Shown in pieces: positions 1 to 16,495 of a stretch of 16,495 bases of DNA. The DNA lies in NCBI GenBank assembly GCA_038891095.1, contig JAWAEV010000011.1:1-16495 (forward strand), written 5' to 3'. A model generated the notes under the pieces. The model worked only from the letters and a program-made list of their open reading frames with translations, was not told where the DNA came from and searched no databases. This DNA comes from Candidatus Altiarchaeota archaeon (GTDB lineage Archaea > Altiarchaeota > Altiarchaeia > IMC4 > QMZM01). How positions within the stretch are numbered: position 1 is the first letter of the stretch; each line of letters opens with the position of its first letter. The translations under genes were made by a program, and so were the position numbers.

Positions 1-676
1 TTGTTGGTTGTGATATTGAGAGTTTTTGTGTTGGGGTTGAGGTGCTTGCTATACTGCCTATTGTTGGAGTGTTTATTTGGAGTTTTGTTGGTTGTGATGC
101 TATTGAGAGTTTTTGTGTTGAGCTTGAGCTTGCTAAGGTTGCTATACTGCCTATTGTTGGAGTGTTTATTTGGAGTTTTGTTGGTTGTGATATTGAGAGT
201 TTTTGTGTTGGGGTTGAGCTTGCTAAGGTTGCTATACTGCCTGTAGATGCTGTGCTTATTTGGAGTTTTGTTGGTTGTGATGCTATTGAGAGTTTTTGTG
301 TTGGGGTTGAGCTTGCTATACTACCTATTGTTGGAGTGCTTATTTGGAGTTTTTCTTCTAAAGAGGATTTTTTAGTATCAGAAATGCTTGTTATGTTTTT
401 CTTTTCACATTTCCCTACTTTGCATATTCCTTTCGTTCCTGAAGGTATTTCATAGCCGCTTTCATCACAACAATAATTGCCAAAGCTGCATCTTTGTACA
501 TCTTTTATGCAGTTGTATTTCTGCTCCTGTTGAATTGCATCTAAAACCAGATCTCTACTCAATGGTGCAGCAAAAATCATTTGTGAAAAAATCGAAAGAG
601 TAAACACTAAGGCAACACAAACAGAAAACAATCTAAAAAGCCAAGCCATTTGCATAATATCCAATTTTTTATTCAT
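1..676 (-). CDS. Secreted/surface protein with N-terminal hydrophobic signal, 6-Cys domain and Ser/Thr/Pro-rich tandem repeats (3' end outside window)
   Basis: Hand translation from ATG 676 stays open for 225 codons to the window edge: MNKKLDIMQMAWLFRLFSVCVALVFTLSIFSQMIFAAPLSRD...NCIKDVQRCSFGNYCCDESGYEIPSGTKGICKVGKCEKKNITS...KLQISTPTIGSIASSTPTQKLSIASQPT... It is absent from the ORF track, probably because no stop lies in the window. The start could also be M8 or M10. Confidence 0.85.
   Translation of the reverse strand, partial: MNKKLDIMQMAWLFRLFSVCVALVFTLSIFSQMIFAAPLSRDLVLDAIQQEQKYNCIKDVQRCSFGNYCCDESGYEIPSGTKGICKVGKCEKKNITSISDTKKSSLEEKLQISTPTIGSIASSTPTQKLSIASQPTKLQISTASTGSIATLASSTPTQKLSISQPTKLQINTPTIGSIATLASSSSTQKLSIASQPTKLQINTPTIGSIASTSTPTQKLSISQPT
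2..352 (-). repeat. Intragenic imperfect tandem repeat, at least 4 units of 84-93 bp
   Basis: Units at 269-352 (84 bp), 179-268 (90), 86-178 (93) and 2-85 (84). All lengths are multiples of 3. Consensus peptide KLQI(N/S)TPTIGSIA(TLA)SSTPTQKLSI(A)SQPT. The array reaches the window edge. Confidence 0.95.
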
Positions 677-784
677 TTTTTATTTTATATTTTTAAATAT
701 TGTTTAATATTTATATAGATTTTACCTTTAAAAATTAGAATATTGTTCAATATTTAGAAATAAGAACAAAAGTCAGTCTATCTC

Positions 785-2071
785 TTATAGCTCCTCTAAA
801 ATTTTTTCAATCTCTACAGTTTTTTGCTCTCCAGTTTTCATATTTCTCAGAGTGACTTTTCCTTCCCTTAGCTCTTTTTGACCAACAATTAAAACTATAG
901 GAATTCCTATAGAACTTGCAAATTCTAATTGTTTGCTTAAATTTCTATTTCTTAGATCTATTGTTGTTGGAATATCTTTCTCTCTCAACTCATTTGCAAT
1001 TTTTAATGTTTCTTCAAATAGAGTTTCATTTGTACTAGCAACAAAAACCTTAGTGTTTGTTTTTTCAAATGAGAAAATTTTTCTCTCTTTTATTATCTCA
1101 ATAATTCTTTCAATTCCTAAACTTATTCCTGTTGCTGGGATTTCCCTTCCAAGAAAAATGCCAATCATTTTGTCATATCTTCCACCACCAGCAATACTGC
1201 CAATGTTTTCAGTAGCTGAAATTTCAAATATTGGGCCAGTATAGTAATCCAAACCACGAGCAAGACTTAAATCAATTTTTACTTCTGAATAATTTCCAAA
1301 TTTGTTTAGATAAGAAAGCAATTTTTTTAGTTCAGATATGCCCTCTTTACCTTCAGGAGATTCCCCAACAAGTTCTTCAGCGCATTGTAAAATTTTTTCA
1401 GGTTCGCCACATATATCTAAAATGTCAAATATTCTCTCAATTTTTTCTGATGAAATTATCTTAGAAAGCTCATCTCTTACACATTCTTTGCCAATTTTAT
1501 CTAACTTATCAATTACTCTGAGAACTTCTATTTCCTTATCCTCATTAACTCCTGAAAATTTTATAATTGCAGAAAGTATTTTCCTATTGTTAAGCCTTAC
1601 TGAAAATTCTCTGAATTTTAATTTTTTTAAAATGAAAATTGCACATGAAATAACTTCTGCATCAGCAAGCATGCTATCGCTACCAATAGTATCAATATCT
1701 GCCTGTAAAAATTCTCTTAATCTGCCTTTTGCTACATCTGAGTAGCGCCAAACTCTATCAATTTGATATCTTTTGAAAGGTAAAGGTAAATTTGGATTCA
1801 TAGCAATAAATCTTGCTAATGGCACTGTAAGATCATATCTCAGGGCAACATCTCTATTGCCTTTATCTTTGAAAACATAAGTTTCATTTAAAATTTCAGA
1901 GCCACCTGCACCTTTAGCTGAGAGTGTGCTCCAATACTCTAATGCAGGCGTTTCTAAAGGTTCAAAACCAAAAATTTCAAAGCCTTTTCTGATTGTGTTT
2001 AGAACAAAATTTCTCAAAATCATATCTTCTGATGAGAAATCTCGCATGCCTTTTACTCTTTCAAGTTTCAT
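785..2071 (-). CDS. hisS: Histidine--tRNA ligase
   Basis: 428 aa with KGMRDF, LRYDLTVPLAR, motif 2 (WRY...GRLREFLQADID), LARGLDYYTG, IAGGGRYD, motif 3 (GISLGIERI) and a C-terminal anticodon-binding domain. Confidence 0.97.
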   Translation of the reverse strand: MKLERVKGMRDFSSEDMILRNFVLNTIRKGFEIFGFEPLETPALEYWSTLSAKGAGGSEILNETYVFKDKGNRDVALRYDLTVPLARFIAMNPNLPLPFKRYQIDRVWRYSDVAKGRLREFLQADIDTIGSDSMLADAEVISCAIFILKKLKFREFSVRLNNRKILSAIIKFSGVNEDKEIEVLRVIDKLDKIGKECVRDELSKIISSEKIERIFDILDICGEPEKILQCAEELVGESPEGKEGISELKKLLSYLNKFGNYSEVKIDLSLARGLDYYTGPIFEISATENIGSIAGGGRYDKMIGIFLGREIPATGISLGIERIIEIIKERKIFSFEKTNTKVFVASTNETLFEETLKIANELREKDIPTTIDLRNRNLSKQLEFASSIGIPIVLIVGQKELREGKVTLRNMKTGEQKTVEIEKILEEL

Positions 2072-2106
2072 ATTTGTTATTTAGACACCAATCAATATAT
2101 TTTATT
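2072..2106. promoter_or_regulatory. Probable overlapping divergent archaeal promoters (hisS / flavin reductase)
   Basis: Only 35 bp lie between the divergent ATGs. AT-rich TATA-like tracts sit about 25-30 nt upstream of each start (TTATTTA near 2077-2083 on +; AATATAT near 2096-2102 on -). AT richness limits specificity. Confidence 0.4.
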
Positions 2107-2631
2107 ATGGAAGTAAAACCTGAAAATTTCTATAAAATTTTGGCTCCAAGAATAACTGCGCTTATAACAACAATTGATTCTAAAGATAGGATTAATGCAG
2201 CACCTTTCAGCTTTATTATGCCAATTTCATTTCAGCCACCCTTTCTTACATTTTCCTGTGGTCATGGAAAAGACACTTTACTGAATGTAAGAGAAACTAA
2301 GGAATTTGTTGTTAATTTACCATCGGAAGAAATTTTAGAGAAAGTTTTAAGATGTAGTGAGAGATTTCCAAGAGGAGTCAGCGAATTGGAGAGAGTAGGG
2401 CTAACAGCTGAGAAAGCAAAAAAAATAAAACCACCAAGAGTTAAGGAATGCTTTGCATGGCTTGAATGCAAATTTGAATTTGAGAAAGAATTTGGCGACC
2501 ATGTATTAATTGTTGGAAAAGTTTTGTGTGCTGAGGTGAAAGATAATTTTTTGGATGTAAAAAAAGCAAAATTGCCTTTGCATATCACAGGTAGAGAATT
2601 TGCGATTGCTAATAGAGCTGTGAAGGTTTAA
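2107..2631 (+). CDS. Flavin reductase-like (FMN-binding split barrel) family protein
   Basis: 174 aa from MEVKPENF, with PRITALITT...NAAPFSF, DTLLNVRETKEFVVN, PPRVKEC and GDHVLIVGKV. The ORF-track start (1993) overlaps hisS, so ATG 2107 is preferred. Confidence 0.9.
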   Translation: MEVKPENFYKILAPRITALITTIDSKDRINAAPFSFIMPISFQPPFLTFSCGHGKDTLLNVRETKEFVVNLPSEEILEKVLRCSERFPRGVSELERVGLTAEKAKKIKPPRVKECFAWLECKFEFEKEFGDHVLIVGKVLCAEVKDNFLDVKKAKLPLHITGREFAIANRAVKV

Positions 2632-2744
2632 TAGGATCACTCTTAACTTCTTTCGCAATTATCTTAGAGTCTTCCATGTTTTTTACTACATCTTAACATT
2701 TTCTTTTTTGAATTTATTACTTTTGCAAAGGAAGTATAAAAAGA

Positions 2745-3791
2745 TTAGATTTTGTGATACCTGCTAAAAATTTCCTTCAATTTTTTTAAAGTTTCCTTAG
2801 TTGAAGATAAAATTCCATTAGATGGAATTTTTTCAGAAAATTCTCCGAGAAGTGCAAGAACAATTTCATAATTTGACTTTGCTAAGGCTTCTAAGTTATA
2901 ACCACCTTCTAACTCAACAAAAATTTTTCCATTGCAAAATTGCTCTGCTTTTTTTCTTAGCAAAGAAGTCATTTCACCATATGCTTGCTCAGTCAACTTT
3001 ATGCTACCAAGGGGATCATCCTTGTGAGAATCTTGACCTGCTGAAATGACAATTAGTTCCGGCTTAAAGGAATCAATTAGAGGTAAGATAAACTCATGAA
3101 AAATGTACAAATAGTCAGAATTTCCAGAATTTGGTTGCATTGGAATATTAACAGTGTAACCTTCACCTCTGCCAACACCAATTTGCTCAATAAATCCTGT
3201 CCCAGGATAAAAATTTTTTGGATCTTGATGAAGAGAGATATTTAAAACTGTTGGGTCATCATAAAAAATTTCCATTGTGCCATTTGCAGCATGGACATCC
3301 CAATCAACAAGGAAAATTTTTTTAATTGAAAATTTTTCCTGTAGGTAGCGGATTGCGATTGCTACATTGTTAAAATAACAGAACCCCATCGCTCTATCAG
3401 AGCAGGCATGATGCCCAGGTGGCCTAACAAGAGCAAATGAATTATTAAATTTTTCATTAGCAACAGCATTAGAAGCAAGCATTACGCCACCAGCTGCCAG
3501 TTTTGCAATCTCGTAAGTTTTCTCATTTGCAAAAGTATCTGCATCTATGAAACCACCACCTGAAAAGCAAAAATTTTTGATAAATTCAACATGTCTCATT
3601 GTATGAACTCTCAGCAAGTCTTTTTCAGTTGCCATATCTGGAGTTAAAATTGAAATTCTCTCAAAAATTCCTTTCTCTTTGAAATATTCCAAAGTTCTAA
3701 TTAACCTTTCTTTTCTCTCTGGATGATGTAATGTAGCATTATGTAAAAGATAATCCTTATGATAAATCAAAGCTGTTTTCTTCTTTATCAT
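2745..3791 (-). CDS. Zn-dependent histone deacetylase / acetylpolyamine amidohydrolase family protein
   Basis: 348 aa from MIKKKTALIYH, with HPERKERL, RPPGHHA, MGFCYFNNVA, DWDVHAANGT, SAGQDSHKDDPLG and LEGGY. The start lies 1 nt after the upstream stop (TAA-A-ATG). Confidence 0.93.
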   Translation of the reverse strand: MIKKKTALIYHKDYLLHNATLHHPERKERLIRTLEYFKEKGIFERISILTPDMATEKDLLRVHTMRHVEFIKNFCFSGGGFIDADTFANEKTYEIAKLAAGGVMLASNAVANEKFNNSFALVRPPGHHACSDRAMGFCYFNNVAIAIRYLQEKFSIKKIFLVDWDVHAANGTMEIFYDDPTVLNISLHQDPKNFYPGTGFIEQIGVGRGEGYTVNIPMQPNSGNSDYLYIFHEFILPLIDSFKPELIVISAGQDSHKDDPLGSIKLTEQAYGEMTSLLRKKAEQFCNGKIFVELEGGYNLEALAKSNYEIVLALLGEFSEKIPSNGILSSTKETLKKLKEIFSRYHKI

Positions 3792-3792
3792 T

Positions 3793-4269
3793 TTATAAAA
3801 ATAAATGCAGCAACTGCTCTGACAAGCCAACAAAAATTGCATATCTCACAATTTTGCTGATAAAAACAATAAAGAAAAATTCTTCAAATTTCATTTTTGT
3901 TAGTCCTGGTAAAATTGTTATTACATCCACAGGAATTCCAGGAATTGGTAGTGTTAGGACAATGAAAAGACCACTCCAACCATACTTATTCATAAATTTT
4001 CCTGCACTTAAAATTTTTTCTTTACTTACATATCTCTCAATTGTTCTTTTACTGAGTGCAAATCCTATAGCATAATTTACGCAAGTTCCAAGTGTAGAAC
4101 CAAAAGATAAAACAAAAATCACGGCATATATGTCCTTCAAATGAAGAAGAAAAACTGGAATCAAGAGTTCAGTAGCAAAGGGAAAGAAAACAGTTGAACT
4201 TAAAAATGATGCTAAAAAAAGCCCAAAAAAACCATACTGAATTAAAATTTTTGATATAGATTCAAACAT
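3793..4269 (-). CDS. VTT domain / YqaA-DedA-like membrane protein
   Basis: 158 aa hydrophobic protein from MFESISK, with GLFLASFLSSTVFFPFATE, GSTLGTCVNYAIG, KYGWSGLF, PIPGIPVDVITILPG and KIVRY. The start lies 1 nt after the polC stop. Confidence 0.85.
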   Translation of the reverse strand: MFESISKILIQYGFFGLFLASFLSSTVFFPFATELLIPVFLLHLKDIYAVIFVLSFGSTLGTCVNYAIGFALSKRTIERYVSKEKILSAGKFMNKYGWSGLFIVLTLPIPGIPVDVITILPGLTKMKFEEFFFIVFISKIVRYAIFVGLSEQLLHLFL

Positions 4270-4270
4270 T

Positions 4271-7200
4271 TTACATGAAATCCCCCAAGCAAACTTGTTT
4301 TGATAAGTCATTCACAAATAATGAATCAATTTCTTTTTGGAGCAATATAATTCTTTGTCTTAAATACTGAGAAACTTTATATCTCTCGATCAATTTAAGA
4401 GATATTTCAATGTATTTCCTTATTGTGCCTTCTGTTACCGTAAGCAGCAATTTGCCACCGCACTTTGTACATTTTCCTATAAGTGGTATTCTTCTATAAG
4501 ATTTATTACATTTAATGCATCTAAATTTTTGTTTTGAGAATGCTCTTAGATTTCCATAGCAATCTCTAAGAAAGTGAGAATTTATTACTAATTCTGCAAC
4601 TTCGTTCTCATCAACAGCCCTTATCTTTTCTGCAACTCTAAGTTGAGAATTAACTTTGTCCATCATTGCTTTCAATTTTACATAATTTGATTCAAGAACC
4701 TCACCAGAAATATCACTTGTTGAATGAGTGAATTTTATGCCGCTGTATGGATCTGTTTTAAGGATGCTCTGAACTGTTGCTATTTTAATATCTGCAGGAT
4801 TTTTTCTTTCTTGTGTTGCTCTGTAAAATTCTATACCATACTCACTAACAATTTCCATCTTATGAACTTCGTCATCCACTTCTTTAGCATCAAGAATTGT
4901 TGAAATTACAAGTGGTGCGTCCATTTGTCCGCCTCTTTTTTCTGGAAGGTATTTTCTCGAGAAATTTAATAACACATCTAAAAGTAGCATAATTGAATCT
5001 TCATCACCATCGCAGTTCCTTCGCTTAGCAGCATGCCAATATGGATGTGCAAAACATACATTTGCCCTTGTTGTTCCAATGATTCTGCCAATAATTCCAG
5101 CTGATGTGTGAGGTGCCAAACCAACTACTAAAGCTCCAATTAAATCCTCCTTATTCTCTGCATTATAAAATTTCTTCATGTGATAGATCTTTTCTAACTC
5201 CTCATCGACAAATTTTGAAACTCTGAAAAGATATTCAAGTCCATTTTCATTTAGAATTATATCCTGAACCTTTAACTCTAAAATTTGTTCATCACTCTTT
5301 AATTCATTTCCTTCTATGTCTTTCTCATAACCTAATTTCTTTAGCTTTTCTATGCTAACATTTGCTTCTTTTGGCTTAAAGTGAGTTAATGGCACATTTG
5401 TTGCATCATATCTTATAGTTCCATCTTTGAAAACATATAAGCTATTTTTTGCTCTCAATATGCCCTTCTCCAATAACTCTGGAATCTTGTAAGTGGATAT
5501 TAAGCCAATGACTCCTTTTACTTCGCTATGGCCAACATTATCAATAGCATTTTTCCATAAAGTTGCGAGATCTATATCCTGCTTGTCATAGTAAACAGTC
5601 CTTGCTTTGCATTTTATGCATATATCCTCATCAGAAAAATTCTTACATAGAGGACAAATTCTTTTCAGAGTTGTTTTTTCACCACATTTCTGGCATATTG
5701 GAAAGATAGCTCTTGAGTTGCATTTTTCACACTTAAAATTTGCCAATTCTACTGAAATTATGTTTTTCTCTGCTGCAACATTTATACTTCTTTCCTTTCC
5801 ACCAAAAAGTCCAACAGGAAAGAGTGAATGCACTGGTGGGGCTAACTTTCTTTCTTTTGCTTTCTCAGGGCGCCCCATCCTTGCAGCGATATATGTGCCA
5901 ATTTTCCTTCTTATCTTTACATTAGAAATCTTCTCAATGAAGTCAAATGCATTATCATCAGGGGAAAACTCTTTAATTTTCTCAACAAAATTTTCCTTTG
6001 AAATTTTTCCCTCATTATAGATTCCCATCTGCATCAGCAAAGGTAGGAATGTATTTTCCTCAATGAAAATTTTATCATCTCTAACTTGATGTTCTGCATA
6101 GAGGCACTCCAAAACTCTTTTTGCTTCACAATCATTGTTCTGCAAAACAAAAAATTTATCTTCTATTTTTCCAGAAAAAAACCAATTTGCCAATTTCTCT
6201 AGCTCTTTAATGCTTATGTCCTCCCATGGATATGTATAGCGAGGATGCAATGGCACAGAAAATTTTTTAGAAATTTCTATTGCTTCTATAGCTGAGATTT
6301 TTTTTATCTCTCTTGGTAAATCTGCTGCTACCTCTTTCAATTCTTGAATCCAAAATTCTTCACAATAGCCAGAAGGCATTAAAGGAGTGTTACTTTGCAA
6401 GAAATCTCCATAACTTATGAGTATATCACCTAAAAATAAAATTTCTTGAACATAGTCTTTTAATTTCTTTGCCATCTCAGTTGTTTCAACCCTTAGAACA
6501 GAACCATCTTTTAGTTTTACAACAGGACACTCAATTTCATCGCAAGGAGTTATAACACATCCCTTTCCAGGAGATTCTATCTTAAGCTGAGTTCCGGTTG
6601 CAATAAAGTTATCAAGTAAAATTTGAGTTGCAGGATGTATACATTTTGCAGCAATTCCTGAAGCTCTGCTTCTACCATATCTAAGTCTAAATCCACCTTT
6701 TTTAGATTGTGATGAAAATATTGGTCTGCCTCCGACAATTTCTAACATAAATTTTGGTTGTGGCTTTAGTTCATTATTTGCTGTTGTATTTACTTTTTTA
6801 ATCGATGCCAACCAACTCCAATCCAAGCCAATTGAAGCTGCATATTTCATAACCTTTGCAGATTTTTGTGCTATACCCTCAGCAATCACTAAGCACATGC
6901 CACTTCTTATTCTGTTTGTTTCAACTCTTTTTAGATCGCGATGAATTGCAACCTCCATCTCTTCAGTTGGATCGCCATCAACACAGACAGGTAAATTTTT
7001 TAAAATTTCTCTAATCTCGTCATCACTTGGCAAATATTGTAGCCTTGAAATGCGATCATTGTAAAGTTTTATTTCTTCAACATAACGCTCAATTTCCTCA
7101 TTTGTTGGCCTATATCCCTGAAGTTTTAATTTTTTTTGTATATAGTCAGCAAATACAACAGATATACCTTGAGCAGTTCCACCAGCTGATCTTATAGGTC

Positions 7201-7603
7201 CAGAAAAATAAATTGAAATGTAACGAGAGCTATCAGGGTTATCTAAAATTTTAACTTTTGCTATTCCTTCAATTGGTGCTGCAACTACGCCTTCGGTTAA
7301 GATTGCAAGTGCTGTTCTTATTGCCTTCTCTATACGATTCTCAATCTCTTCTTTCTTTAGGAAGATTACATCTTCACCTAAGATGTCATCTATAATATCA
7401 GTTATATTACTCCTACCAAATTTTCTTATCTTTGATGCAATTCCAGCTAAACCAACAAGACCCTCAACTCTTGTTGCCAAATCTCCAGCAGGTATTGCTT
7501 CAACTTCAATGTCTGGATCTATTGCCTCAGCTCTTGCTTTACTTGCAATATCATATGCATCTGAAATTTTCTTTTTTAATTCAGAGAAATATTCATCATT
7601 CAT
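4271..7603 (-). CDS. polC: DNA polymerase D large subunit DP2, intein-free
   Basis: 1110 aa from MNDEYF, with LTEGVVAAPIEGI, GPIRSAGGTAQ, GGFRLRYGRSR, ARMGRPEKAKER, catalytic HAAKRRNCDGDED, RGGQMDAPL, several CxxC Zn modules and a C-terminal PIP-box-like QVCLGDFM. Confidence 0.97.
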   Translation of the reverse strand: MNDEYFSELKKKISDAYDIASKARAEAIDPDIEVEAIPAGDLATRVEGLVGLAGIASKIRKFGRSNITDIIDDILGEDVIFLKKEEIENRIEKAIRTALAILTEGVVAAPIEGIAKVKILDNPDSSRYISIYFSGPIRSAGGTAQGISVVFADYIQKKLKLQGYRPTNEEIERYVEEIKLYNDRISRLQYLPSDDEIREILKNLPVCVDGDPTEEMEVAIHRDLKRVETNRIRSGMCLVIAEGIAQKSAKVMKYAASIGLDWSWLASIKKVNTTANNELKPQPKFMLEIVGGRPIFSSQSKKGGFRLRYGRSRASGIAAKCIHPATQILLDNFIATGTQLKIESPGKGCVITPCDEIECPVVKLKDGSVLRVETTEMAKKLKDYVQEILFLGDILISYGDFLQSNTPLMPSGYCEEFWIQELKEVAADLPREIKKISAIEAIEISKKFSVPLHPRYTYPWEDISIKELEKLANWFFSGKIEDKFFVLQNNDCEAKRVLECLYAEHQVRDDKIFIEENTFLPLLMQMGIYNEGKISKENFVEKIKEFSPDDNAFDFIEKISNVKIRRKIGTYIAARMGRPEKAKERKLAPPVHSLFPVGLFGGKERSINVAAEKNIISVELANFKCEKCNSRAIFPICQKCGEKTTLKRICPLCKNFSDEDICIKCKARTVYYDKQDIDLATLWKNAIDNVGHSEVKGVIGLISTYKIPELLEKGILRAKNSLYVFKDGTIRYDATNVPLTHFKPKEANVSIEKLKKLGYEKDIEGNELKSDEQILELKVQDIILNENGLEYLFRVSKFVDEELEKIYHMKKFYNAENKEDLIGALVVGLAPHTSAGIIGRIIGTTRANVCFAHPYWHAAKRRNCDGDEDSIMLLLDVLLNFSRKYLPEKRGGQMDAPLVISTILDAKEVDDEVHKMEIVSEYGIEFYRATQERKNPADIKIATVQSILKTDPYSGIKFTHSTSDISGEVLESNYVKLKAMMDKVNSQLRVAEKIRAVDENEVAELVINSHFLRDCYGNLRAFSKQKFRCIKCNKSYRRIPLIGKCTKCGGKLLLTVTEGTIRKYIEISLKLIERYKVSQYLRQRIILLQKEIDSLFVNDLSKQVCLGDFM

Positions 7604-9089
7604 TTTTGAAATGTATTGCATGAAGTTCAAAATTTTGTAAATTTATTACAGGAACAACTGCAGGTGTAGGCACATGTCCCAATTGCTCTTGATATTTTGT
7701 TCTACCTTGAAAAGTTCCTGAGTTGATAACTCTAACTCCTCTATAGGTAGCATATCCATTTGTATGCACATGTCCGCAATGAAGTATGTCAGGAATGTCA
7801 TCAATAAAAAGAACATCTTTTTTTTCTGGAGAAATTAGATCATTTCCATAGCTAGGAACAAGGTATCTTTTTTTTAGGTATTCTATCATTGCAGTTTCTG
7901 GATGTGAATAACTACAATAAGATAAGGAGCTTATTATATTATCCAAAGAAGTTCCATGGTAGATGAGTGTTTTAACATTGTGAGTTTCAACTTGTGCAGG
8001 ATTGCCAACAAGATGTACATTTTCCAGATCATATAACTTCGGAGCGATATCTTTACTTATTTTTGGTTGTGGCTCTGAGCTGCGAACAGCATCGTGATTT
8101 CCAACAGAAATTACAATTTCTATATAACTAGGAATTTCCATAAGTAATTCTGCGAAATAGTCATATTGCTTATAAATATCAGGAATTGAAAGTTCATATT
8201 CTTGCGTAGGATAAATTCCAATACCATCAACTAAATCGCCTGCTATAAAAATATATTTCACTTTCTCAGCAATTTCTTTATTGTTGTTATCTTTCAAATT
8301 TAACCAATCAATAAATTTACTAAATTCTTTTTTTAGGAAGAGATAGCTACCAACATGTATATCAGAGAGAAATGCTAAATGAACTGGCTCTTCAGCATTT
8401 TTTGGTTGATGCACCATTGGTAATTCAGGCTCAACAAAATCATTTGCTATGAATAAATTATTTCTAAATACTCCTGTTACGCCTATAACAGTGTCGAGCA
8501 AAATCCCTTCATATGCCTCTTGCAATCTCTCATTTTCCTTCGGTATTAAAATTGTTAGTTCACCTGTTGGATCCTCAACATCTAAAAATTTATAGCCCTT
8601 TTTACTTTCCCTCTTTTCTCTAACCATAACTATCAATGACAAATTTTCATTTGGATACTTCTTTAAATTTTTTATTTGTATTGTTCCAGCCATATTTGGC
8701 CTTTCCCTTATAACACTTGCTAAGTTGTTATACTTCTGATTAAAATATTCAAGAAAGTCTTCAATCTTGCCAGAACATGTTGAATTTCCACTGATCTCTT
8801 TTTTATTAGAAATTTTTAGTTCAGATGAAATTTCCTCTGAAAAAATTTTTTTTGATGGACGAATAACTTCAACTTTTTGTTTTTCTATTTCCCCTTTGAC
8901 TTTCTCTTCCTTGATAACAAATTCCTCAATAAATTCTTGGGTTATAAGCCATTGTCTCTCGCTAATCGCTCTTTCTATTATTAAATCAATGTCGATGCCA
9001 TTTTTAATGATAGCATTAAATGCATGAGTTGTTAAAATTAGATTATTCTTAGCAAACTTCTCTATTATTATATCCGAACAAACAACCAT
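7596..9089 (-). CDS. polB: DNA polymerase D small (3'-5' proofreading) subunit DP1
   Basis: 497 aa from MVVCSD, with an OB fold (EDPTG) and calcineurin-like phosphoesterase motifs SDIHVGS, AGDLVDGIGIYP, GNHD, YHG, HCGHVH and INSGTFQ. Overlaps polC by 8 nt. Confidence 0.96.
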   Translation of the reverse strand: MVVCSDIIIEKFAKNNLILTTHAFNAIIKNGIDIDLIIERAISERQWLITQEFIEEFVIKEEKVKGEIEKQKVEVIRPSKKIFSEEISSELKISNKKEISGNSTCSGKIEDFLEYFNQKYNNLASVIRERPNMAGTIQIKNLKKYPNENLSLIVMVREKRESKKGYKFLDVEDPTGELTILIPKENERLQEAYEGILLDTVIGVTGVFRNNLFIANDFVEPELPMVHQPKNAEEPVHLAFLSDIHVGSYLFLKKEFSKFIDWLNLKDNNNKEIAEKVKYIFIAGDLVDGIGIYPTQEYELSIPDIYKQYDYFAELLMEIPSYIEIVISVGNHDAVRSSEPQPKISKDIAPKLYDLENVHLVGNPAQVETHNVKTLIYHGTSLDNIISSLSYCSYSHPETAMIEYLKKRYLVPSYGNDLISPEKKDVLFIDDIPDILHCGHVHTNGYATYRGVRVINSGTFQGRTKYQEQLGHVPTPAVVPVINLQNFELHAIHFKNE

Positions 9090-9090
9090 T

Positions 9091-10005
9091 TTATTTACCT
9101 GTAAAAAATTGCCTAATCTTTTCAATTATTGTCAAGGAAGCCTCTTCTTGTGCTTCATAAGTTGACGCTCCTAAGTGAGGAGTTAAAACGACATTTTCAA
9201 GTTTTAATAAAGGGGAATCTTTTGGTGGTTCTTCCTTGAATACATCTAATGCAGCGCCTCTTATTTTTCCACTACTCAAAGCCTCGAAGAGAGCGTATTC
9301 ATCAACAACTTCACCACGAGAAAAATTTAAAAGAACTGCTGAATTTTTCATCTTTCCAATTTTTTCCTTGTTTAATAGATTTCTTGTTTCTTCAGTGAGG
9401 GGAACATGTAATGTCACTATATCTGAATTTTCAATCAATTCATCAAGAGAAACTTTCTTCACACCTTCATTCTCAGCATCCTTTTTATTTAGTTTAGGGT
9501 CATAAGCTAAGATTTTCATCCCAAATGCCTTAGCTTTTTTTGCAACATCTTTGCCAATATTTCCAAACCCAATAACGCCAATTGTTTTCCCCTTAAGTGA
9601 ATAACCCATAAATTTTGTCCTTTCCCATTTTCCTTCCCTTACTGATTTATCTGCCTTTAAAATTCCTCTCAAAAGACAAATTAAAGAACCAAATACAAGC
9701 TCTGCAACTGAGGAAGTTGCTGCTTCTGGTGAATTTAGAATCACTATACCTTTCTCATCTGCTGCCTTTAAATCAATATTATCTAAACCGACACCAGCTC
9801 TACCAATAACCTTTAATTTGCTTTTTTCTATAACATCTCTTGTAACTTTTGTTCCGCTGCGAACAACTATAGCATCAAAATTTTCTATCTTCTTTAGCAA
9901 CTCATCATGTGAAATTCCATAAGCTAATTCAACATCTGCAAATTTTTTTGCCTCATTTACTGCTTTCTCATCAAGTTTATCAGTAATCAAAATTTTTGGT
10001 TTCAT
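9091..10005 (-). CDS. serA: D-2-hydroxyacid dehydrogenase, probably short (no ASB/ACT domain) D-3-phosphoglycerate dehydrogenase
   Basis: 304 aa with VVRSGTKV, GRAGVGLDNID, GVIGFGNIG, LHVPLT, SRGEVVDE, AALDVF and TPHLGAST. The family is secure; the substrate is inferred. Confidence 0.8.
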   Translation of the reverse strand: MKPKILITDKLDEKAVNEAKKFADVELAYGISHDELLKKIENFDAIVVRSGTKVTRDVIEKSKLKVIGRAGVGLDNIDLKAADEKGIVILNSPEAATSSVAELVFGSLICLLRGILKADKSVREGKWERTKFMGYSLKGKTIGVIGFGNIGKDVAKKAKAFGMKILAYDPKLNKKDAENEGVKKVSLDELIENSDIVTLHVPLTEETRNLLNKEKIGKMKNSAVLLNFSRGEVVDEYALFEALSSGKIRGAALDVFKEEPPKDSPLLKLENVVLTPHLGASTYEAQEEASLTIIEKIRQFFTGK

Positions 10006-10190
10006 GGTAAATAATTAAAAGAAAGAGAATAAATTTTGGTAGAAAATTAACAAATGAACCTTCTATAGCAATAAACAGTCATTATTCCTAAATCGAAATT
10101 CAACTTCAAATGTGGAAAATCTTGCGAAAGGATCAGAATAATATTTCAATTTGGCTTTTTCTTCAGTAATATCCTCGTTAGATTTTATCT
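9983..10190. repeat. Direct repeat copy 1 (208 bp): serA 5' end plus upstream region
   Basis: Matches 11302-11509 at offset 1319 with one mismatch (G10006 vs A11325), by direct reading. Confidence 0.97.
10024..10040 (-). promoter_or_regulatory. Putative BRE/TATA element of the serA-polB-polC operon (duplicated at 11343-11359)
   Basis: Minus strand reads ACCAAAA-TTTATT, with the TATA-like hexamer 23-28 nt upstream of the serA ATG and no SD sequence. This fits a leaderless archaeal transcript. Confidence 0.4.
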
Positions 10191-10241
10191 TGTTAGGATT
10201 GAACTTGCCCATTTCCGATAATTTAATTTAAGTCTACATTG

Positions 10242-10542
10242 CTAATCTTCAATGTTAATTCCCAATTGTTTTAAGGCTTCCTTTATTCTATCATATTCTT
10301 CCTTTTCTATAGCCCCCTTCCGTGCAACTATCTTAATCTCTACATCATCAAACTTAGATTGAATATAATTTAAGAGTCCTAAAATCTGAGAAACTTTGCC
10401 TTTTGGAATTTTTATCAAAGGTAATTCTAATCTTGAGATGGCTTCTTTTTTAGTTCCCATAAATCAGTGGCAAAGATGTCCATTGTTAGTCTACCTTTTA
10501 GTATATGCTATGTTGAACCGCTATTATATGAAAAGGTTTCAT
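10242..10542 (-). pseudogene. Internally deleted, frameshifted DUF499-family ATPase remnant (N-terminus joined to C-terminus)
   Basis: GAGGAG (10555-10550) precedes ATG 10542: MKPFHIIAVQH, then a frameshift to HILKGRLTMDIFATDLWE. This resembles the DUF499 start as I recall it (MKPFHTIAIPHxDILEGRLTMDVFAADLWEV). It runs directly into the 72-aa ORF 10242-10460 (IPKGKVSQILGLLNYIQSKF...IKEALKQLGI), which resembles DUF499 C-termini. No P-loop remains. Confidence 0.75.
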
Positions 10543-10882
10543 TTTTCATCTCCTCGGCTATTTTTTCAAAAAATGGCCTTATAGTTGGTAATCGCTCAAC
10601 AACGACCTTCCATATAATTTCAAGGTCAACACCATGATATTCATGTATTAATTTATCTCTCATTCCTGCCATTTCTTTCCATGGAATCTCGCCATACTTT
10701 TTCTTAATATCTTTTGGCACATTTTTAGCAGCCTCTCCAATTATCTCAAGGTTTCTAATAATAGCATCTACAGTTTTTCTGTCTTTTGCAAAATCTTCGA
10801 AAGCGTAACCTTCCACAAAACTTTCAATCGCCTTAATCGAATCCAAAATATCAAGAATATAATGCCTATAATCTCTTTTCAT
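10508..10882 (-). CDS. hepT: HepT-like HEPN ribonuclease toxin (DUF86 family)
   Basis: 124 aa with DAIIRNLEIIGEA, IPWKEMAGMRDKLIHEY (intact RX4HXY) and VDLEIIW. ATGA overlap with the upstream MNT gene. Confidence 0.93.
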   Translation of the reverse strand: MKRDYRHYILDILDSIKAIESFVEGYAFEDFAKDRKTVDAIIRNLEIIGEAAKNVPKDIKKKYGEIPWKEMAGMRDKLIHEYHGVDLEIIWKVVVERLPTIRPFFEKIAEEMKNETFSYNSGST

Positions 10883-11172
10883 ACTGCAATAACCTCCTTT
10901 AGAATACGTTCTCCTATGTAGGGCTTGAGAGCTTTTTTTGAAACAAGGTCCACTTTTACACCTAGAAGTTTGCTTAGCTCCTCTTCAAATTTAATGAATT
11001 CAAATAAATCTATGGGCTCGCTAAACTCAACTAAAATATCGATATCGCTTGTTTTTTTCTGCTCTCCTCTCACAAAAGAACCAAATATGCCAATATATTT
11101 AACATTATATTTTTTTCTTAGTTCATCTTTTTGCTGAAGTAATTTTTCTTTAAGCTCACTTATAGTGTTCAT
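10879..11172 (-). CDS. mntA: MntA-like minimal nucleotidyltransferase antitoxin
   Basis: 97 aa with IGIFGSFVRGEQKKTSDIDILVEF (GSX10DXD) and LGVKVDLV. Lies directly upstream of the HEPN gene. Confidence 0.94.
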   Translation of the reverse strand: MNTISELKEKLLQQKDELRKKYNVKYIGIFGSFVRGEQKKTSDIDILVEFSEPIDLFEFIKFEEELSKLLGVKVDLVSKKALKPYIGERILKEVIAV

Positions 11173-11324
11173 TTTACCCAGCTTCCTAATTTACTTTGGG
11201 ATTTTAAGTTTTTAAATTCTTCCATTAGTCTTTCCTTCTTTCCTGAAGGGAAGCATCCTTCTAATAATTTTTCTCCTTGCTCTAATTTGGTAAGTCTGTC
11301 TGTAATCAAAATTTTTGGTTTCAT
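11169..11324 (-). pseudogene. 51-aa chimeric ORF: duplicated serA N-terminus fused to a degenerate DUF1156-like methylase C-terminal tail
   Basis: Hand translation: MKPKILITDRLTKLEQGEKLLEGCFPSGKKERLMEEFKNLKSQSKLGSWVK*. The first 9 residues equal SerA's MKPKILITD. An adjacent frame at 11293-11270 reads LPN*SKEK, which with KLLEG..SGK.ERL resembles the DUF1156 tail as I recall it (TLPNESKEKKLLDGFLxGKER). The stop overlaps the mntA ATG (ATGA). Confidence 0.6.
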
Positions 11325-11509
11325 AGTAAATAATTAAAAGAAAGAGAATAAATTTTGGTAGAAAATTAACAAATGAACCTTCTATAGCAATAAACAGTCA
11401 TTATTCCTAAATCGAAATTCAACTTCAAATGTGGAAAATCTTGCGAAAGGATCAGAATAATATTTCAATTTGGCTTTTTCTTCAGTAATATCCTCGTTAG
11501 ATTTTATCT
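11302..11509. repeat. Direct repeat copy 2 (208 bp), including the last 13 nt of res
   Basis: 207/208 identical to 9983-10190. Contains the res stop codon (11497-11499) and a copy of the serA start codon at 11324. Confidence 0.97.
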
Positions 11510-14040
11510 CTTTCGTCTTTAACCACTTGTTTGTGTGCCCCAACTAACTCATCAAAAGTCTTAAAATCATGGCTTTCGAATAAACTCTGGTCAATTCGTA
11601 TAAAATTCCATTTTTTACCTGTTAATTTTGTTAAATCTTCACACCACTTTTTAGCTCTTTCATCTTTTCTTGGAACATCTATATCTACCAATCCTTTAGT
11701 TTCAACAAAATAGAATTCGCCTTTTTCAGTTTCTACAATATAATCTGGATAATATTGTTTTATTACACCAGAAGACGATAAATATTCAGCATAAATTCCT
11801 ATTTTTCTTTCAGGAATCTTAAAAAACTTTTTTACATCTTCTACCTTATCCAGAAACTTACAAAAATCCACCTCCAGATTATTACTGCATGGCTGATAGT
11901 TTAAAACTGATTTTTCTGCGGGATAAACTTGTCTGGACCAAACAAATGGCTTTGTATCCTTCAATTCTAGATTATCTAATACTTTTGGTTCCTGCTGTTT
12001 AATTGATATTTTCTTTAATTCCTTTGAAAACAAATTTATCAGAAACTCTTCTGAATTTGGCTCACTTAAAACAAAAAGGACCCTTGGATCTCCCAAATCT
12101 ACCTCTTGTTTAAACATTTTTTTGCTGACATACTTTTTTATGAATGGGTATAAAATTGGGAAATTCGTTGTATCCGGTAGTCTTATTTCTTTTAGAATTT
12201 TATGGGTATAATATGATAAAACGGAATTTGAATCTTGTGGGACTGATAAAGTCCATTGTCTTTCAACAACTATTGCTTTTGTGAGCATGTCTTCTGCAAT
12301 ATATTTTGTTTTTAAGACTTTATTCTGTAATTCAAAATTACCTTTTGGTAGCTTATCAAAATCAACTTTGCTTAAATCAAGCTCTTTTCTTTCAATTCTC
12401 GGCGTTAAAATTGGAATTGTTATGTTAAATTTATCAGCTTTTTTCTCATCAACAAAGATTGTTGTCATATCAAGCTCTCTATCTACATCAAAAGTCGCTA
12501 ATTCAATGCCTTCCTGCTGCTCCAATTCTTCAAGAATCTGGATTAATCCCTTTGGCCCAATTACTTCGAGCATATTAACATAGTTTCCGGCAGGTTGATC
12601 TGGAAACATCTTTCTTAACCCTCTACCTATAACTTGCTCTGGTAGAACCTTTCTTTTTGAGGTGTAAGAGCGCAAACCAACCACAATTGTAACATTTCTT
12701 ACATCCCAGCCCTCATTAAGCATCATAACGCTAACAATTGCTTCATATTGCTCGCCTTCATCTATATTTTTGGCAGCTTCTCTTGCTTTGTCTAAATCTG
12801 CTTCCACAATATCTCCATTAAGTTTTGTATGTATCAAAAGAACCTTATTTTTTAAGTCAGAAAGAGAATTTAAGTAATTAAAAACATCATCAGCAGCTTC
12901 TGTGTTTTCGCACATTATAAATAAGACGGGTTTTTTTCCTATTTTTTCAAGATTCTTTTTATATTCCCTCCATCTTCTTACTCCGGCATTTATCCAAGCC
13001 CTGTATCGTTCATGTGCTGCATTTGATGTAATTTCTCTTGCATTTTTTAAAATTCCTTTCATTGGTCTTTTTACTATATTCATCTCAATAGCTTCTGCTA
13101 ATGCGAAATCTACAATAATCCATGGGAATAATGAACCTGTTTCGGTTTTTGGAGTCGCAGAAAAATCAAGTTCAGCCCAAATACCCATATGAAATCGTTT
13201 GATCAGATTTTCGTTAAGTTTCAATAAAACCTTTTTCCAAGCTTTTTCAACATGATAAATATGGTGGGCTTCATCTTTTAGAATCATAATATCAGGACAA
13301 GAGGTTAAAACCTCTCTTATTCTGTTTGTTTCGCTGATTCTTTCTCTTTGGACATCTCTTAAGTCAAGAATTTCATTAACTTCCTCTTTCTTTTTTCGTT
13401 CTTCTAATTGTTGAATGTTTGTTAAAAATAAAACTTTTCCAGGAATTGTTGTTATTGGGTCTTCTCTTAAAATTATATTTAATTCCCAGTTCTCTTTCCA
13501 TTCTGTTGGAATAAATGGATATTTTCTAAATATCTTGTTTTCCTCAAAATCTCTTTTAAGTCTTTCATAAACTATAATGTTAGGAGCAATAAGCAGGAAT
13601 TTTGATGGATATTCTTCTTTATTTTCAAATAAGTTATTAAAATAAGCCCATACAATAGCCATCGCCATGACAAAAGTTTTTCCAGAACCAGTCGCCATCT
13701 TGAAAGCATAATTTGGATAAATGTCTATGCTTGGGTCATAACCATACATTGGGCCAGAGCCAAACTCTCTTGCCAAATCAACAAAATTCTTATTTTTCAG
13801 GACTTCTTTGACATAAATTAAAGTTTCAATTGCTTCTCTTTGCGCAAACCAAAACTCAAAAAGCTCACCATTTATAATATGGTCTTCTTCAAACCAGAAC
13901 TGCAATAATCTTTTTGTTGTTGGTGTTGTTCTTGGATAACCCTGTTCTCTCCAACTATAAACAACCTCTCTTAATTTGTTCACTAAATAAGTCTTGCTTG
14001 GTTTTCTTTTAGCTGGATTAAGAATGTCTGTAGGTTTCAT
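11497..14040 (-). CDS. res: Type III restriction endonuclease subunit (SF2 helicase/ATPase plus PD-(D/E)xK nuclease)
   Basis: 847 aa with AQREAIE, FKMATGSGKT (Walker A), DEAHH, SATP, MLNEGWDV, EQVIGRGLR and C-terminal YYPDYIV...VETKG. Confidence 0.93.
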   Translation of the reverse strand: MKPTDILNPAKRKPSKTYLVNKLREVVYSWREQGYPRTTPTTKRLLQFWFEEDHIINGELFEFWFAQREAIETLIYVKEVLKNKNFVDLAREFGSGPMYGYDPSIDIYPNYAFKMATGSGKTFVMAMAIVWAYFNNLFENKEEYPSKFLLIAPNIIVYERLKRDFEENKIFRKYPFIPTEWKENWELNIILREDPITTIPGKVLFLTNIQQLEERKKKEEVNEILDLRDVQRERISETNRIREVLTSCPDIMILKDEAHHIYHVEKAWKKVLLKLNENLIKRFHMGIWAELDFSATPKTETGSLFPWIIVDFALAEAIEMNIVKRPMKGILKNAREITSNAAHERYRAWINAGVRRWREYKKNLEKIGKKPVLFIMCENTEAADDVFNYLNSLSDLKNKVLLIHTKLNGDIVEADLDKAREAAKNIDEGEQYEAIVSVMMLNEGWDVRNVTIVVGLRSYTSKRKVLPEQVIGRGLRKMFPDQPAGNYVNMLEVIGPKGLIQILEELEQQEGIELATFDVDRELDMTTIFVDEKKADKFNITIPILTPRIERKELDLSKVDFDKLPKGNFELQNKVLKTKYIAEDMLTKAIVVERQWTLSVPQDSNSVLSYYTHKILKEIRLPDTTNFPILYPFIKKYVSKKMFKQEVDLGDPRVLFVLSEPNSEEFLINLFSKELKKISIKQQEPKVLDNLELKDTKPFVWSRQVYPAEKSVLNYQPCSNNLEVDFCKFLDKVEDVKKFFKIPERKIGIYAEYLSSSGVIKQYYPDYIVETEKGEFYFVETKGLVDIDVPRKDERAKKWCEDLTKLTGKKWNFIRIDQSLFESHDFKTFDELVGAHKQVVKDERDKI

Positions 14041-14498
14041 CCTATTACCTCTATTCTCTCCAAAAATTCTATATATTTTAAAGGAAAATTATGTTGTTTA
14101 GCTCCATCAATTAAATATTTCATATATCCACTAGAGGGTTTTAAACTATCATCAGTCATATTCTTTTGTGCGATATAAACTTGTGCCTTTACTTCTTTTT
14201 TATTTTTAAGAATAAGGACAGGAATTAATTGTCTATTGTAATGGTTCGGATAACCTTCATAATTATCCAATTTTAAAATATCTGCTTCTTCAATTTCATA
14301 AATTACACCATAAACTTCAGAATTTTTATCCGGTATTATATTAGCGTATCCTACGCCTTTATCTGAAGTTGCTCTTTTATTAAAAACTAATTTCCATCCT
14401 TTTACTACTGCAATATCCTCAGAAAAAATTTTTACACCTCTATTCACCATTCTGTTTTTGTCCATATTTGAGCCATAAGCAAAATAGAAAACTCTCAT
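14037..14498 (-). CDS. Gamma-glutamylcyclotransferase (GGCT/AIG2-like) family protein
   Basis: 153 aa with YFAYGSNM, GWKLVF, ANIIP, VYGVIYEI, LDNYEGYP (candidate catalytic Glu), PSSGYMKYLIDGA and FPLKYIEFL. ATGA overlaps with both mod and res. Confidence 0.92.
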   Translation of the reverse strand: MRVFYFAYGSNMDKNRMVNRGVKIFSEDIAVVKGWKLVFNKRATSDKGVGYANIIPDKNSEVYGVIYEIEEADILKLDNYEGYPNHYNRQLIPVLILKNKKEVKAQVYIAQKNMTDDSLKPSSGYMKYLIDGAKQHNFPLKYIEFLERIEVIG

Positions 14499-16372
14499 TT
14501 TATTCTTACCTCAATAATCTTATTGGTATCGTTTCCAAAAATATCAATAACTTTAACCATTATTTGATATTCTCCTACACTTTCATAAGTTTTTGTTGCT
14601 TCTACCTCTATTTTTGGTTCTTTTTTTGTTCTGTATGTCTGCCACTGATTATGGAAAGTATCACCTTTATAATCCCAGTCAATTGCCCAATAATCAATCA
14701 AGTCAGAATATTTCTTTATGCTGTCTTTTATCTCATCAAGCCAGTCAGAAGGTGGAACTTGAAAGTCAGTTATCTTAATCGTGACTTTTCTTCCTTCTAT
14801 TTTTGGCTCAATTTCAAGATAAGAAACCTCACTAAACCTTATATTTTTCAAAATCTTTTCATCAATAACCTGCTCTGGAATTTTTAACAGCCTTAAATCA
14901 AAACCAACAAGAGCAGATTTTATCTCATTAACAGATGGAATTTGAATTAGTCTTAAGTCAATCTTGTGCTCTTTGGCTAATTGTTTAGCCAAATCATTAA
15001 CTTCATAACTCCACTCCCAACCAAGAATATCAAGCTTTGTTATCTTGTTGTCAACGCATTCTTTTATTGTGTTCCTGATTTCTTCCATGCTTACAGGAGC
15101 ATTTAAAGAGCCAACATGAACAAGCCTTATTCCTTTCTTTCCATGAATCCATTTAAACCCTGTTATAGGCTCTGCACCATAAAGCTTAAGCATAAAAATA
15201 AGATAATCAAAAGGCTTATCATTCAAATATTCAAGCTCGTAATTACCAATGTTTAAAATCTCAAATGGGCGGGCTGGTTTGCCATAAACCTTATTTTCAT
15301 CTTTATCAGCCAACAAGTCTTTAGAATTATGAATATCCATTAATCTCTTTCTTGTTATGTGAATAGCAAATTTTGATAAATCACACATAATCCATCTTCT
15401 TCCTAATTTCTCTGCTACTGCCCCTGTTGTTCCAGAACCACAGAAGAAATCTGCGACGATGTCGCCTGGATTAGAAGAGGCAAGGATAATACGCTTTAAG
15501 AGGGCTTCGGGTTTTTGAGTTTCTATTCCAGTATGCTCTCTTTTCTCAATGCCCCATTTTTGGGCAGGAGGTATTTCTTTCCATACATCTGTAATAGCTA
15601 ATCCTTTGCGCTTCATTTTTTCTGGATATTTTGTTAAATCCTCCTCAGGATAAGGCATATACATTTTATTAAAAACAAAACTATCCGTTTTGGAATAAAA
15701 TAATATTGTATCGTGACCTCTAATCCAATTTGGTGCTAATGATTTAAATCCAGACGGATTTCCCAAATCCCATATTATTTCTCTTTGAAAATTTTCGTAC
15801 CCAAAAATTTCATCCATCATTACTTTTACATAATGTCCTACGTGCCAGTCAAGATGAACATAAATACTTCCATTATCAGCTAATAGTTCTTTCATTAAAA
15901 CTAATCTCTCATACATGTATTTTAGATAAGAAGCTATGCCGCCTGACCAAGTATCTCTATAAGCTTTTTCTTCTATTATTGATGGTTCTTTCATTACTTC
16001 TTCATCTCCGATTTTGGTTTTAACAGTAAAATCTGCTCCTGTAAAGAATGGCGGGTCTATATAAATTAGGTTTATTTTTCCACCCCACCCCTGATTAAGC
16101 AAAGAACTCATCACTAACTTGTTATCCCCCCAAATTAAGAGGTTTTTCCAGTCTTTTGGATAGTTTTCAGGCCACTCGTTCTCAGGAAATAAAGATTTTT
16201 GCGCTCCACCTTTAACTCTCGGCTGGTTTATTGTTTCTACCTTTTGAAAAGCAAGATTTGGCTTTTCAATGTTTATTGTTGCTTTTTTTCTCAACTCAAA
16301 AAATTCCTTAAACCAGTTTTCAGGGTATTTTCCGTTCCAGAGCAATTCAGTATATTTTTTGTTGTTTTCCAT
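14495..16372 (-). CDS. mod: Type III R-M modification subunit (beta-class amino-methyltransferase)
   Basis: 625 aa with LIWGDNK, motif IV YIDPPF, GSIYVHLDWH, TQKPEALLKRII and motif I DFFCGSGTT following motif IV (beta order). C-terminal IDYWAIDWDY...VKVIDIFGND is typical of type III Mod-like proteins. Confidence 0.93.
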   Translation of the reverse strand: MENNKKYTELLWNGKYPENWFKEFFELRKKATINIEKPNLAFQKVETINQPRVKGGAQKSLFPENEWPENYPKDWKNLLIWGDNKLVMSSLLNQGWGGKINLIYIDPPFFTGADFTVKTKIGDEEVMKEPSIIEEKAYRDTWSGGIASYLKYMYERLVLMKELLADNGSIYVHLDWHVGHYVKVMMDEIFGYENFQREIIWDLGNPSGFKSLAPNWIRGHDTILFYSKTDSFVFNKMYMPYPEEDLTKYPEKMKRKGLAITDVWKEIPPAQKWGIEKREHTGIETQKPEALLKRIILASSNPGDIVADFFCGSGTTGAVAEKLGRRWIMCDLSKFAIHITRKRLMDIHNSKDLLADKDENKVYGKPARPFEILNIGNYELEYLNDKPFDYLIFMLKLYGAEPITGFKWIHGKKGIRLVHVGSLNAPVSMEEIRNTIKECVDNKITKLDILGWEWSYEVNDLAKQLAKEHKIDLRLIQIPSVNEIKSALVGFDLRLLKIPEQVIDEKILKNIRFSEVSYLEIEPKIEGRKVTIKITDFQVPPSDWLDEIKDSIKKYSDLIDYWAIDWDYKGDTFHNQWQTYRTKKEPKIEVEATKTYESVGEYQIMVKVIDIFGNDTNKIIEVRIK

Positions 16373-16411
16373 TTTTACACCGTCTCTTTATCCTTTTTAT
16401 CAAGTTGCATT

Positions 16412-16495
16412 TTATCTCACTTTATCCCTCTCAGCATTTACAATAATGGCTTTGCATTTAGGAAATCCTTTGCTTTTTGTTTGTTGTTTCTCGAG
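16412..16495 (-). CDS. Possible 3' end of an upstream gene (unidentified)
   Basis: The frame is open from the window edge (LEKQQTKSKGFPKCKAIIVNAERDKVR*) and ends in the TAA-A-ATG junction seen elsewhere in the window. Another frame is also open to about 16438, so the frame is uncertain. Confidence 0.3.
   Translation of the reverse strand, partial: LEKQQTKSKGFPKCKAIIVNAERDKVR

Follow-up and report, generated by a model that had tools for sequence, protein, structure and literature searches.

A gamma-glutamyl cyclotransferase-fold gene as cargo between mod and res of a Type III-like restriction-modification system in an altiarchaeal genome

We have analyzed a stretch of 16,495 nucleotides from a Candidatus Altiarchaeota archaeon (NCBI GenBank assembly GCA_038891095.1, contig JAWAEV010000011.1, positions 1 to 16,495; hereafter the window) in which mod and res, which make up a Type III-like restriction-modification (R-M) system, are separated by a small gene of the gamma-glutamyl cyclotransferase (GGCT) fold. 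The gap between mod and res is a variable swap slot, since related pairs carry either nothing or differing cargo there, and its content turns over between closely related systems. Among cargo genes the GGCT is a rare and new family, in an arrangement of a known type, and we read the 153-amino-acid gene as what would be portable cargo in the slot of a horizontally mobile Type III-like R-M family. The best single reading of its role, to which we assign a probability of about one half, is that of a defence-linked accessory, because the GGCT clade appears to be confined to the slot and to have been retained in it for long, and because three of the four types of slot cargo are defence-type genes. 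The GGCT would then act as a self-contained accessory enzyme tied to virus defence, like the Septu and Dsr1-like modules of sister systems, and not as a structural third subunit.

All three genes are encoded on the reverse strand. The mod gene (14495..16372) codes for a Type III-like DNA methyltransferase of 625 aa (P0001), the embedded GGCT-fold gene (14037..14498) for a single-domain protein of 153 aa (P0002), and res (11497..14040) for a Type III-like restriction subunit of 847 aa (P0003) which combines a superfamily 2 (SF2) helicase with a C-terminal PD-(D/E)xK nuclease. The stop codon of mod and the start codon of the GGCT gene overlap in an ATGA at 14495..14498, as do the GGCT stop and the res start at 14037..14040, and at each of these two junctions a Shine-Dalgarno-like GAGGT stands 11-16 nt upstream of the ATG, at the second one within the final GGCT codons. 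From this gene layout we infer co-transcription and coupled translation of mod-GGCT-res. The res gene can probably also start translation by itself, because GAGGT precedes its ATG and the identical GAGGT..ATGA layout precedes res in one relative with a Dsr1-like cargo (L251) and in another without cargo (L247). Four-base overlaps are frequent in this compact genome, for example in the HepT/MNT pair (10879-10882), so that the overlaps on their own are not remarkable; what goes beyond chance is the recurrence of the gene order in other genomes.

The assembly across the locus is sound, as independent contigs from two samples bridge both junctions. A Logan contig of 3219 nt from run X1, which may be the sample of origin, spans 11480-14698 with 0 differences, and two contigs of sample X2, from the same hot-springs study, run across the GGCT/res junction (13898-14244) and the mod/GGCT junction (14358-14846), respectively. 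Summed depth in X1 reached 72-75 over 14128-14495, within the GGCT gene, versus about 12 in the flanks. This excess was traced to one high-depth contig with 21-nt matches and judged spurious; it could reflect related GGCT genes elsewhere in the community, a spurious signal being the more probable. Loose contig ends occur in X1 at 14248, 14369 and 14486. In metatranscriptome X3, again of the same study, almost none of the sequence words of the locus were present. The contig of the window ends 123 nt upstream of mod. Base composition gave no sign of a recent insertion of the GGCT gene: its GC content (0.281) and its GC content at third codon positions (GC3, 0.175) are below those of mod and res and within the range of the genome, where hisS has a GC3 of 0.184.

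Relatives of Res number in the thousands; those nearest to it, at 76-89% identity, belong to Aenigmatarchaeota, to Caldisericum or to unnamed metagenomes. In ten related mod-res pairs the slot was readable, a count that includes a Micrarchaeia metagenome-assembled genome (MAG) and leaves out G186 (where res precedes mod), a fragment in G007 and two contigs matched by size and source; the slot was empty in six of the ten and occupied in four, by a GGCT, a Dsr1-like protein, an AAA_16 ATPase and Septu, respectively. The two closest readable relatives, an Aenigmatarchaeota MAG (Res 88% identical) and a Caldisericum (Res 87%), have consecutive Mod and Res accessions and carry no intact cargo. Direct abutment of mod and res is seen in G196, G429 and G174 and in the viral contigs L257/L258, and the first three, which are all of the cargo-free Aenigmatarchaeota loci that were read (3/3), have an ATGA overlap between mod and res.

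The Dsr1-like cargo is a protein of 1088 aa (L251:2601-5867, in G087:C15; Res 83% and Mod 74% identical) with 4-nt overlaps on both sides of its gene. It matches the PADLOC Dsr1 model at 9.3e-58 through its C-terminal 900 residues, which cover profile positions 292-1215 of 1227; in the first approximately 150 residues no SIR2 domain was found, only a weak sub-threshold match to the nuclease model pP_pnuc_1, and the protein is perhaps a relative of Dsr1 in which the effector has been exchanged. A STAND-like ATPase of 405 aa (AAA_16/nSTAND1) fills the slot at L260 (G899; Res 57-59% identical). In the more distant L259/L261 (G691:C122:358-6808; Res 38-40% identical) the order is mod-PtuA-PtuB-res, with the Septu genes matching PtuA at 1.7e-100 and PtuB at 3.3e-61 and with 4-nt overlaps at the PtuA/PtuB and PtuB/res junctions. 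The res match of G691 holds one in-frame TAG, and res may be broken there.

In the Res tree the proteins of the window and of the Micrarchaeia MAG fall into one 13-row clade (support 98) together with two cargo-free systems and the Dsr1-like one, and the sister of the window's Res is the cargo-free P0102 (support 96). This pattern fits an old residence of the GGCT in the slot followed by loss or replacement; it would also be compatible with transfer of the GGCT between systems. Mod and Res differ in their histories. Identity is 79% between the Micrarchaeia Mod and the Mod paired with the sister of the window's Res (P0240/P0346, P0230), whereas the Micrarchaeia Res (P0115) is only 68-70% identical to the window's Res and its sister P0102, a discrepancy suggestive of recombination between mod and res, in or close to the slot.

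A search for homologues of the GGCT protein found 98, among which only the clusters P0004 (66% identical), P0005 (63%) and P0006 (63%) are close, the next being at most 49% identical. The Micrarchaeia MAG encodes on one 36276-nt contig Res P0115 (MEM3399904.1, 70% identical), GGCT P0004 (MEM3399905.1, 66%) and Mod P0346 (MEM3399906.1, from a cluster with a representative 66% identical to the window's Mod); since the three accessions are consecutive, res, GGCT and mod would be adjacent there. To judge by equal size and source, GGCT P0339 and Mod P0240 would share one Logan contig of 4341 nt, and GGCT P0006 and Mod P0282 one contig of 5380 nt from JGI. The eight GGCTs of this R-M type form one clade in a FastTree phylogeny of 250 rows (SH-like support 89), which sits in the mod-res slot wherever its context is determinable and appears confined there. 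Between the window and the Micrarchaeia MAG the GGCT has diverged by 34% and Res by 30%, and this similarity to its partner suggests that the GGCT has long been retained in the R-M unit. The proteins of the clade are basic, their isoelectric points (pI) lying at 8.6-9.3, while the median of 242 other homologues is 7.0.

Assignment of the two core proteins to Type III is based on their domains, an N6_N4-type Mod and a Res with an SF2 helicase and a PD-(D/E)xK nuclease. Mod matches the N6_N4 methylase family PF01555 at 7.6e-49 and the PADLOC model MTase_III at 4.3e-109, and its translation shows DPPF and FCGSGTTG motifs. Res matches ResIII (1.2e-15), RE_endonuc (3.1e-5) and the PADLOC model REase_III (7.4e-18), with GSGKT, DEAH and D..ETK motifs in its translation. 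It scored below the cut-off of the NCBIfam equivalog BPTD_3080 (6.2e-87; 292.5 bits versus 800) and is a relative of that equivalog and not a member. A Type III system would further be expected to cleave DNA in an ATP-dependent manner, with a need for Mod and two recognition sites.

The GGCT protein matches GGACT (PF06094; 4.8e-19, 69.5 bits versus a cut-off of 22.8) and AIG2_2 (PF13772; 2.4e-16, 60.4 bits versus a cut-off of 27). Its YFAYGSN motif occupies residues 5-11 and LDNYEG residues 77-82. Each of the 43 homologues aligned has the glutamate E81, and this residue corresponds to the glutamate of DEQEG in human GGCT, which, from the GGCT literature, we take to be catalytic. When a profile of the 43 homologues was compared with the PDB it retrieved human GGCT (2pn7, 4.7e-20) in an alignment that matches up both the YGSN loop and the glutamate, and Foldseek, run with an AlphaFold model of mean pLDDT 97.3, gave human GGCT (3cry/2i5t; TM 0.86, E 1.1e-13) and then B. 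subtilis YkqA as the best PDB structure matches. The protein is a bare catalytic domain, with the GGCT fold over its full length and without a sensor or regulatory part. It is an intact single-domain enzyme of the human-GGCT type and probably an active gamma-glutamyl cyclotransferase. Enzymes of this type cut an L-gamma-glutamyl amide with a free alpha-amino group to give 5-oxoproline and the released amine or amino acid. Co-folding of the GGCT protein with Res gave a score of 0.00 in a run without controls, to which we attach no weight either way.

The host genome comprises 0.96 Mb in 15 contigs and is 93.65% complete. Searches of it with G_glu_transpept, GCS2, LamB_YcsF and Amidoligase_2 (PF12224) returned no match, with matches in the named control genomes, and as these families are unmatched an ordinary gamma-glutamyl cycle is not evident in the host. 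Both the R-M system and the GGCT look horizontally acquired, since their homologues are rare in the host's phylum: Res matches occur in 2 of its 61 genomes, counting G000, the other being a decayed fragment in G007, and GGCT homologues in 5 of the 61, again counting G000, with the four others 28-29% identical. By phylum, Res was matched in 0/215 genomes of that of G064, 0/38 of that of G063, 1/401 of that of G687 and 5/371 of that of G061. Viral contigs searched with Res yielded only two near-identical loci, and plasmids six distant matches. The fragment in G007, a genome of the host's family, lies at L256 (G007:C22:155-784) and consists of the first approximately 176 codons of res, 82% identical, after which the frame diverges; the 51 codons upstream of it are unlike Mod or GGCT, and the whole looks like a decayed copy of the R-M system.

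Several observations weigh against a defence-linked role. For the wider family 240 loci with more distant homologues were surveyed, 80 each from genomes, metagenomes and viruses; a Res match was absent from all of them (0/240), with a weak match to a methylase motif in only four viral loci. The 141 immediate neighbours at the 80 genome loci are mostly housekeeping genes, including EpmC (12) and TusA (9), with PADLOC hits only as singletons; at large, the GGCT subfamily shows no link to R-M or to defence. No PADLOC model matches the GGCT protein itself. Restriction evidently does not need the GGCT, because the two closest readable relatives do without cargo, and embedded genes can be non-defence passengers. 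As to the recurrences, all three rest on accession order or on a match of size and source and not on DNA that was read, and the slot occupancy of the clade is counted outside the P0005 cluster, its largest subgroup with six members. A conserved synteny is seen in gammaproteobacteria: at L016-L070 a stand-alone GGCT repeatedly lies beside the elongation factor P hydroxylase EpmC (12/141) or TusA (9/141).

The main rival to the defence-linked reading we hold to be a realistic possibility though not a probable one. A metabolic enzyme that recycles gamma-glutamyl peptides or amines would have been captured by the R-M unit and would persist because that unit is mobile and addictive, with no role in defence. 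Homologues at 33-49% identity are widespread, stand-alone and set in housekeeping neighbourhoods, and the nearest outgroups of the clade (L076, P0059, L027 and L008) have unrelated ones, with L076, L027 and L008 next to genes for a base-excision glycosylase, AspRS, PIN, ProQ and ThiC. A bare catalytic domain without a sensor is what such a passenger would look like, and according to Payne et al. (2024; bioRxiv 10.1101/2024.01.29.577857) over half of the embedded genes cannot be placed clearly with mobility, defence or non-defence functions. A hitch-hiker does not account well, however, for a clade found in the slot wherever its context is known and kept there across about 30-35% divergence, nor for its company, three of the four cargo types being defence-type genes; it would also have to serve a host in which neither the partners of a gamma-glutamyl cycle nor 5-oxoprolinase subunit A is detectable.

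If the GGCT is a defence-linked accessory, as we prefer, its substrate might be sought among viral conjugates. Viruses often carry the GGCT family: out of 594 pattern hits in a viral scan 458 were confirmed, and matches occur in 39 phage records; a metagenome scan with a clade-specific alignment gave only relatives of 38% identity or less among the matches listed. An amidoligase was found in the fetched flanks, mostly directly upstream of the GGCT, at 26 of the 80 viral and 12 of the 80 metagenome loci and at 0 of the 80 genome loci. Annotated Heliusvirales phages (L263, L264) likewise have an amidoligase-GGCT pair, with a DNA methyltransferase 3-4 genes upstream of it, and phages and prophages with an amidoligase and a gamma-glutamyl cyclotransferase also appear among the PHROG annotations in PMC11318856. 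The closer viral homologues (40-44% identical) lie amid miscellaneous genes. On this background the GGCT might, as a weak suggestion, remove a gamma-glutamyl group from a conjugate that the virus makes or needs, for example the product of the amidoligases which many viruses encode beside their own GGCT. A more specific form of the proposal is that the R-M-embedded clade would be the first GGCT-fold antiviral accessory, carried by restriction systems of archaea and bacteria and cutting gamma-glutamyl groups that viral amidoligase-type enzymes put on DNA precursors, on DNA or on host or viral proteins; a viral counter-defence would be undone in this way and restriction would stay effective. Taken in this specific form, the proposal is rather unlikely.

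An initial annotation of the window had put forward a narrower mechanism, in which the GGCT frees hypermodified viral DNA, or the precursors of that DNA, of gamma-glutamyl-type groups and so opens otherwise protected DNA to cutting by Res; this now appears improbable. The chemistry of the family would require a modification that terminates in an L-gamma-glutamyl group whose alpha-amine is free, and we know of no described gamma-glutamyl DNA base modification of that kind, no literature search having been aimed at it, which counts against the idea. The high pI of the clade proteins would suit an enzyme acting on DNA but may just reflect AT-rich, lysine-rich proteomes, and Pfam finds no DNA-binding domain in the GGCT protein. 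The position of the phage amidoligase-GGCT pair downstream of a DNA methyltransferase is suggestive in the same direction, an N6_N4-type methyltransferase being present in the fetched flanks of 12 of 40 amidoligase-GGCT loci, a figure without a baseline. Very improbable, finally, is an integral subunit or regulator that controls restriction through contact with Mod, Res or both, as a PrrC-like guardian would, or a reading frame that serves mainly to couple res translation to mod: the overlaps on both sides and the same gene order in the Micrarchaeia MAG would agree with it, but in sister systems the same ATGA joins mod directly to res, the slot also accepts unrelated cargo, res has its own Shine-Dalgarno-like motif and the enzyme fold is the only domain of the protein.

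The descriptive part of the initial annotation has held up well. The mod-GGCT-res order and both ATGA overlaps are found at exactly the coordinates given above and are bridged by independent contigs, the YFAYGSN motif and the LDxxEG glutamate are kept, and the gene order, whose recurrence it proposed to check, recurs in the Micrarchaeia MAG and probably in two further contigs. Its candidate three-component system is not supported as an obligate unit, given that the closest readable relatives are cargo-free and others have unrelated cargo. It also suggested that res translation would depend on ribosomes passing through the GGCT gene, against which stands the Shine-Dalgarno-like motif of res itself. 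Of the outcomes that it named as refuting, a lack of enrichment of GGCT homologues near defence genes holds for the wider homologues and not for the close clade where the slot is readable; empty slots are found, including those of the two closest pairs, while most of the cargo types are defence-type genes. In the comparison of the three genes that it proposed, the GGCT clade and Res have a similar divergence, and Mod and Res disagree. As to its statement that it knew of no described system with this architecture, a GGCT-fold defence gene is present neither in PADLOC nor in the literature searched, in which queries combining GGCT or AIG2 with R-M, phage defence or amidoligase returned no proposed one; the architecture of embedding is already found in Payne et al. 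(2024). A count of the words 'cyclotransferase' and 'AIG2' in its main text gives 0, and 'cyclotransferase' is not in the main text of a 2026 Nucleic Acids Research survey of archaeal immunity; the supplements of both, which list embedded families, may bear on this.

Whatever the role of the enzyme, these data document embedding also at the junction of mod and res, in a Type III-like R-M family that is widespread and shared by DPANN-type archaea and bacteria, and the turnover of the slot between closely related systems is likewise seen regardless of what the GGCT does. If the GGCT contributes to immunity, cleavage of gamma-glutamyl amides would be a new catalytic activity in the defence repertoire. 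It would also point to a so far unknown gamma-glutamyl-based step in virus biology, and the amidoligase-GGCT modules that are common in viruses would thereby gain a function.

Directly downstream of res the window carries an MNT (NTP_transf_2)/HepT toxin-antitoxin pair (10508-11172, reverse strand) with a 4-nt overlap, and upstream of MNT a 51-aa open reading frame (11169-11324, reverse strand), absent from the list of open reading frames, whose TGA overlaps the ATG of MNT. The pair and the R-M system together form a small defence cluster. The other genes encode HisRS, a deacetylase, a VTT-domain membrane protein, the large and small subunits of PolD and a 2-hydroxyacid dehydrogenase; the PolD genes mark the host as archaeal.

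Among known systems, human GGCT (C7orf24; 2pn7, 2i5t, 3cry, 2rbh) and B. subtilis YkqA (2qik) share with the protein of the window the fold, the YGSN loop and the catalytic glutamate, but the identity is 28-29% and the gene here belongs to a restriction operon in an archaeon without a detectable gamma-glutamyl cycle. The phage amidoligase-GGCT modules involve the same broad GGCT subfamily (28-36% identity) on mobile elements of virus-host conflict, whereas the partners here are mod and res and there is no amidoligase in the window or in the host genome. With canonical Type III R-M of the EcoP15I type, for which a Mod2Res1 structure has reportedly been published, the system has in common an N6_N4-family Mod and a helicase-nuclease Res in one operon; it differs in the extra gene between mod and res and in being hosted by a small archaeon. 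PrrC, the anticodon nuclease encoded within the Type Ic R-M locus EcoprrI, is similar in that it is not itself an R-M enzyme and its clade hardly occurs outside R-M operons. It has, unlike the GGCT with its one catalytic domain of 153 aa, an ATPase/regulatory domain and a known trigger and target, and the regulatory or sensor part that a PrrC-like guardian carries besides its effector is lacking in the GGCT protein. Payne, Hughes, Fineran and Jackson (2024; bioRxiv 10.1101/2024.01.29.577857) describe genes embedded in multi-gene defence operons ('guilt-by-embedding') for Hma, BREX, DISARM and Type I R-M, with PrrC embedded almost exclusively in the last of these. While their main text is not on Type III and the cargo here is a bare GGCT-fold enzyme, the arrangement is the same as the one they describe there: a gene nested on the same strand between core genes, in a variable slot which often holds known defence genes, here Septu and a Dsr1-like gene.

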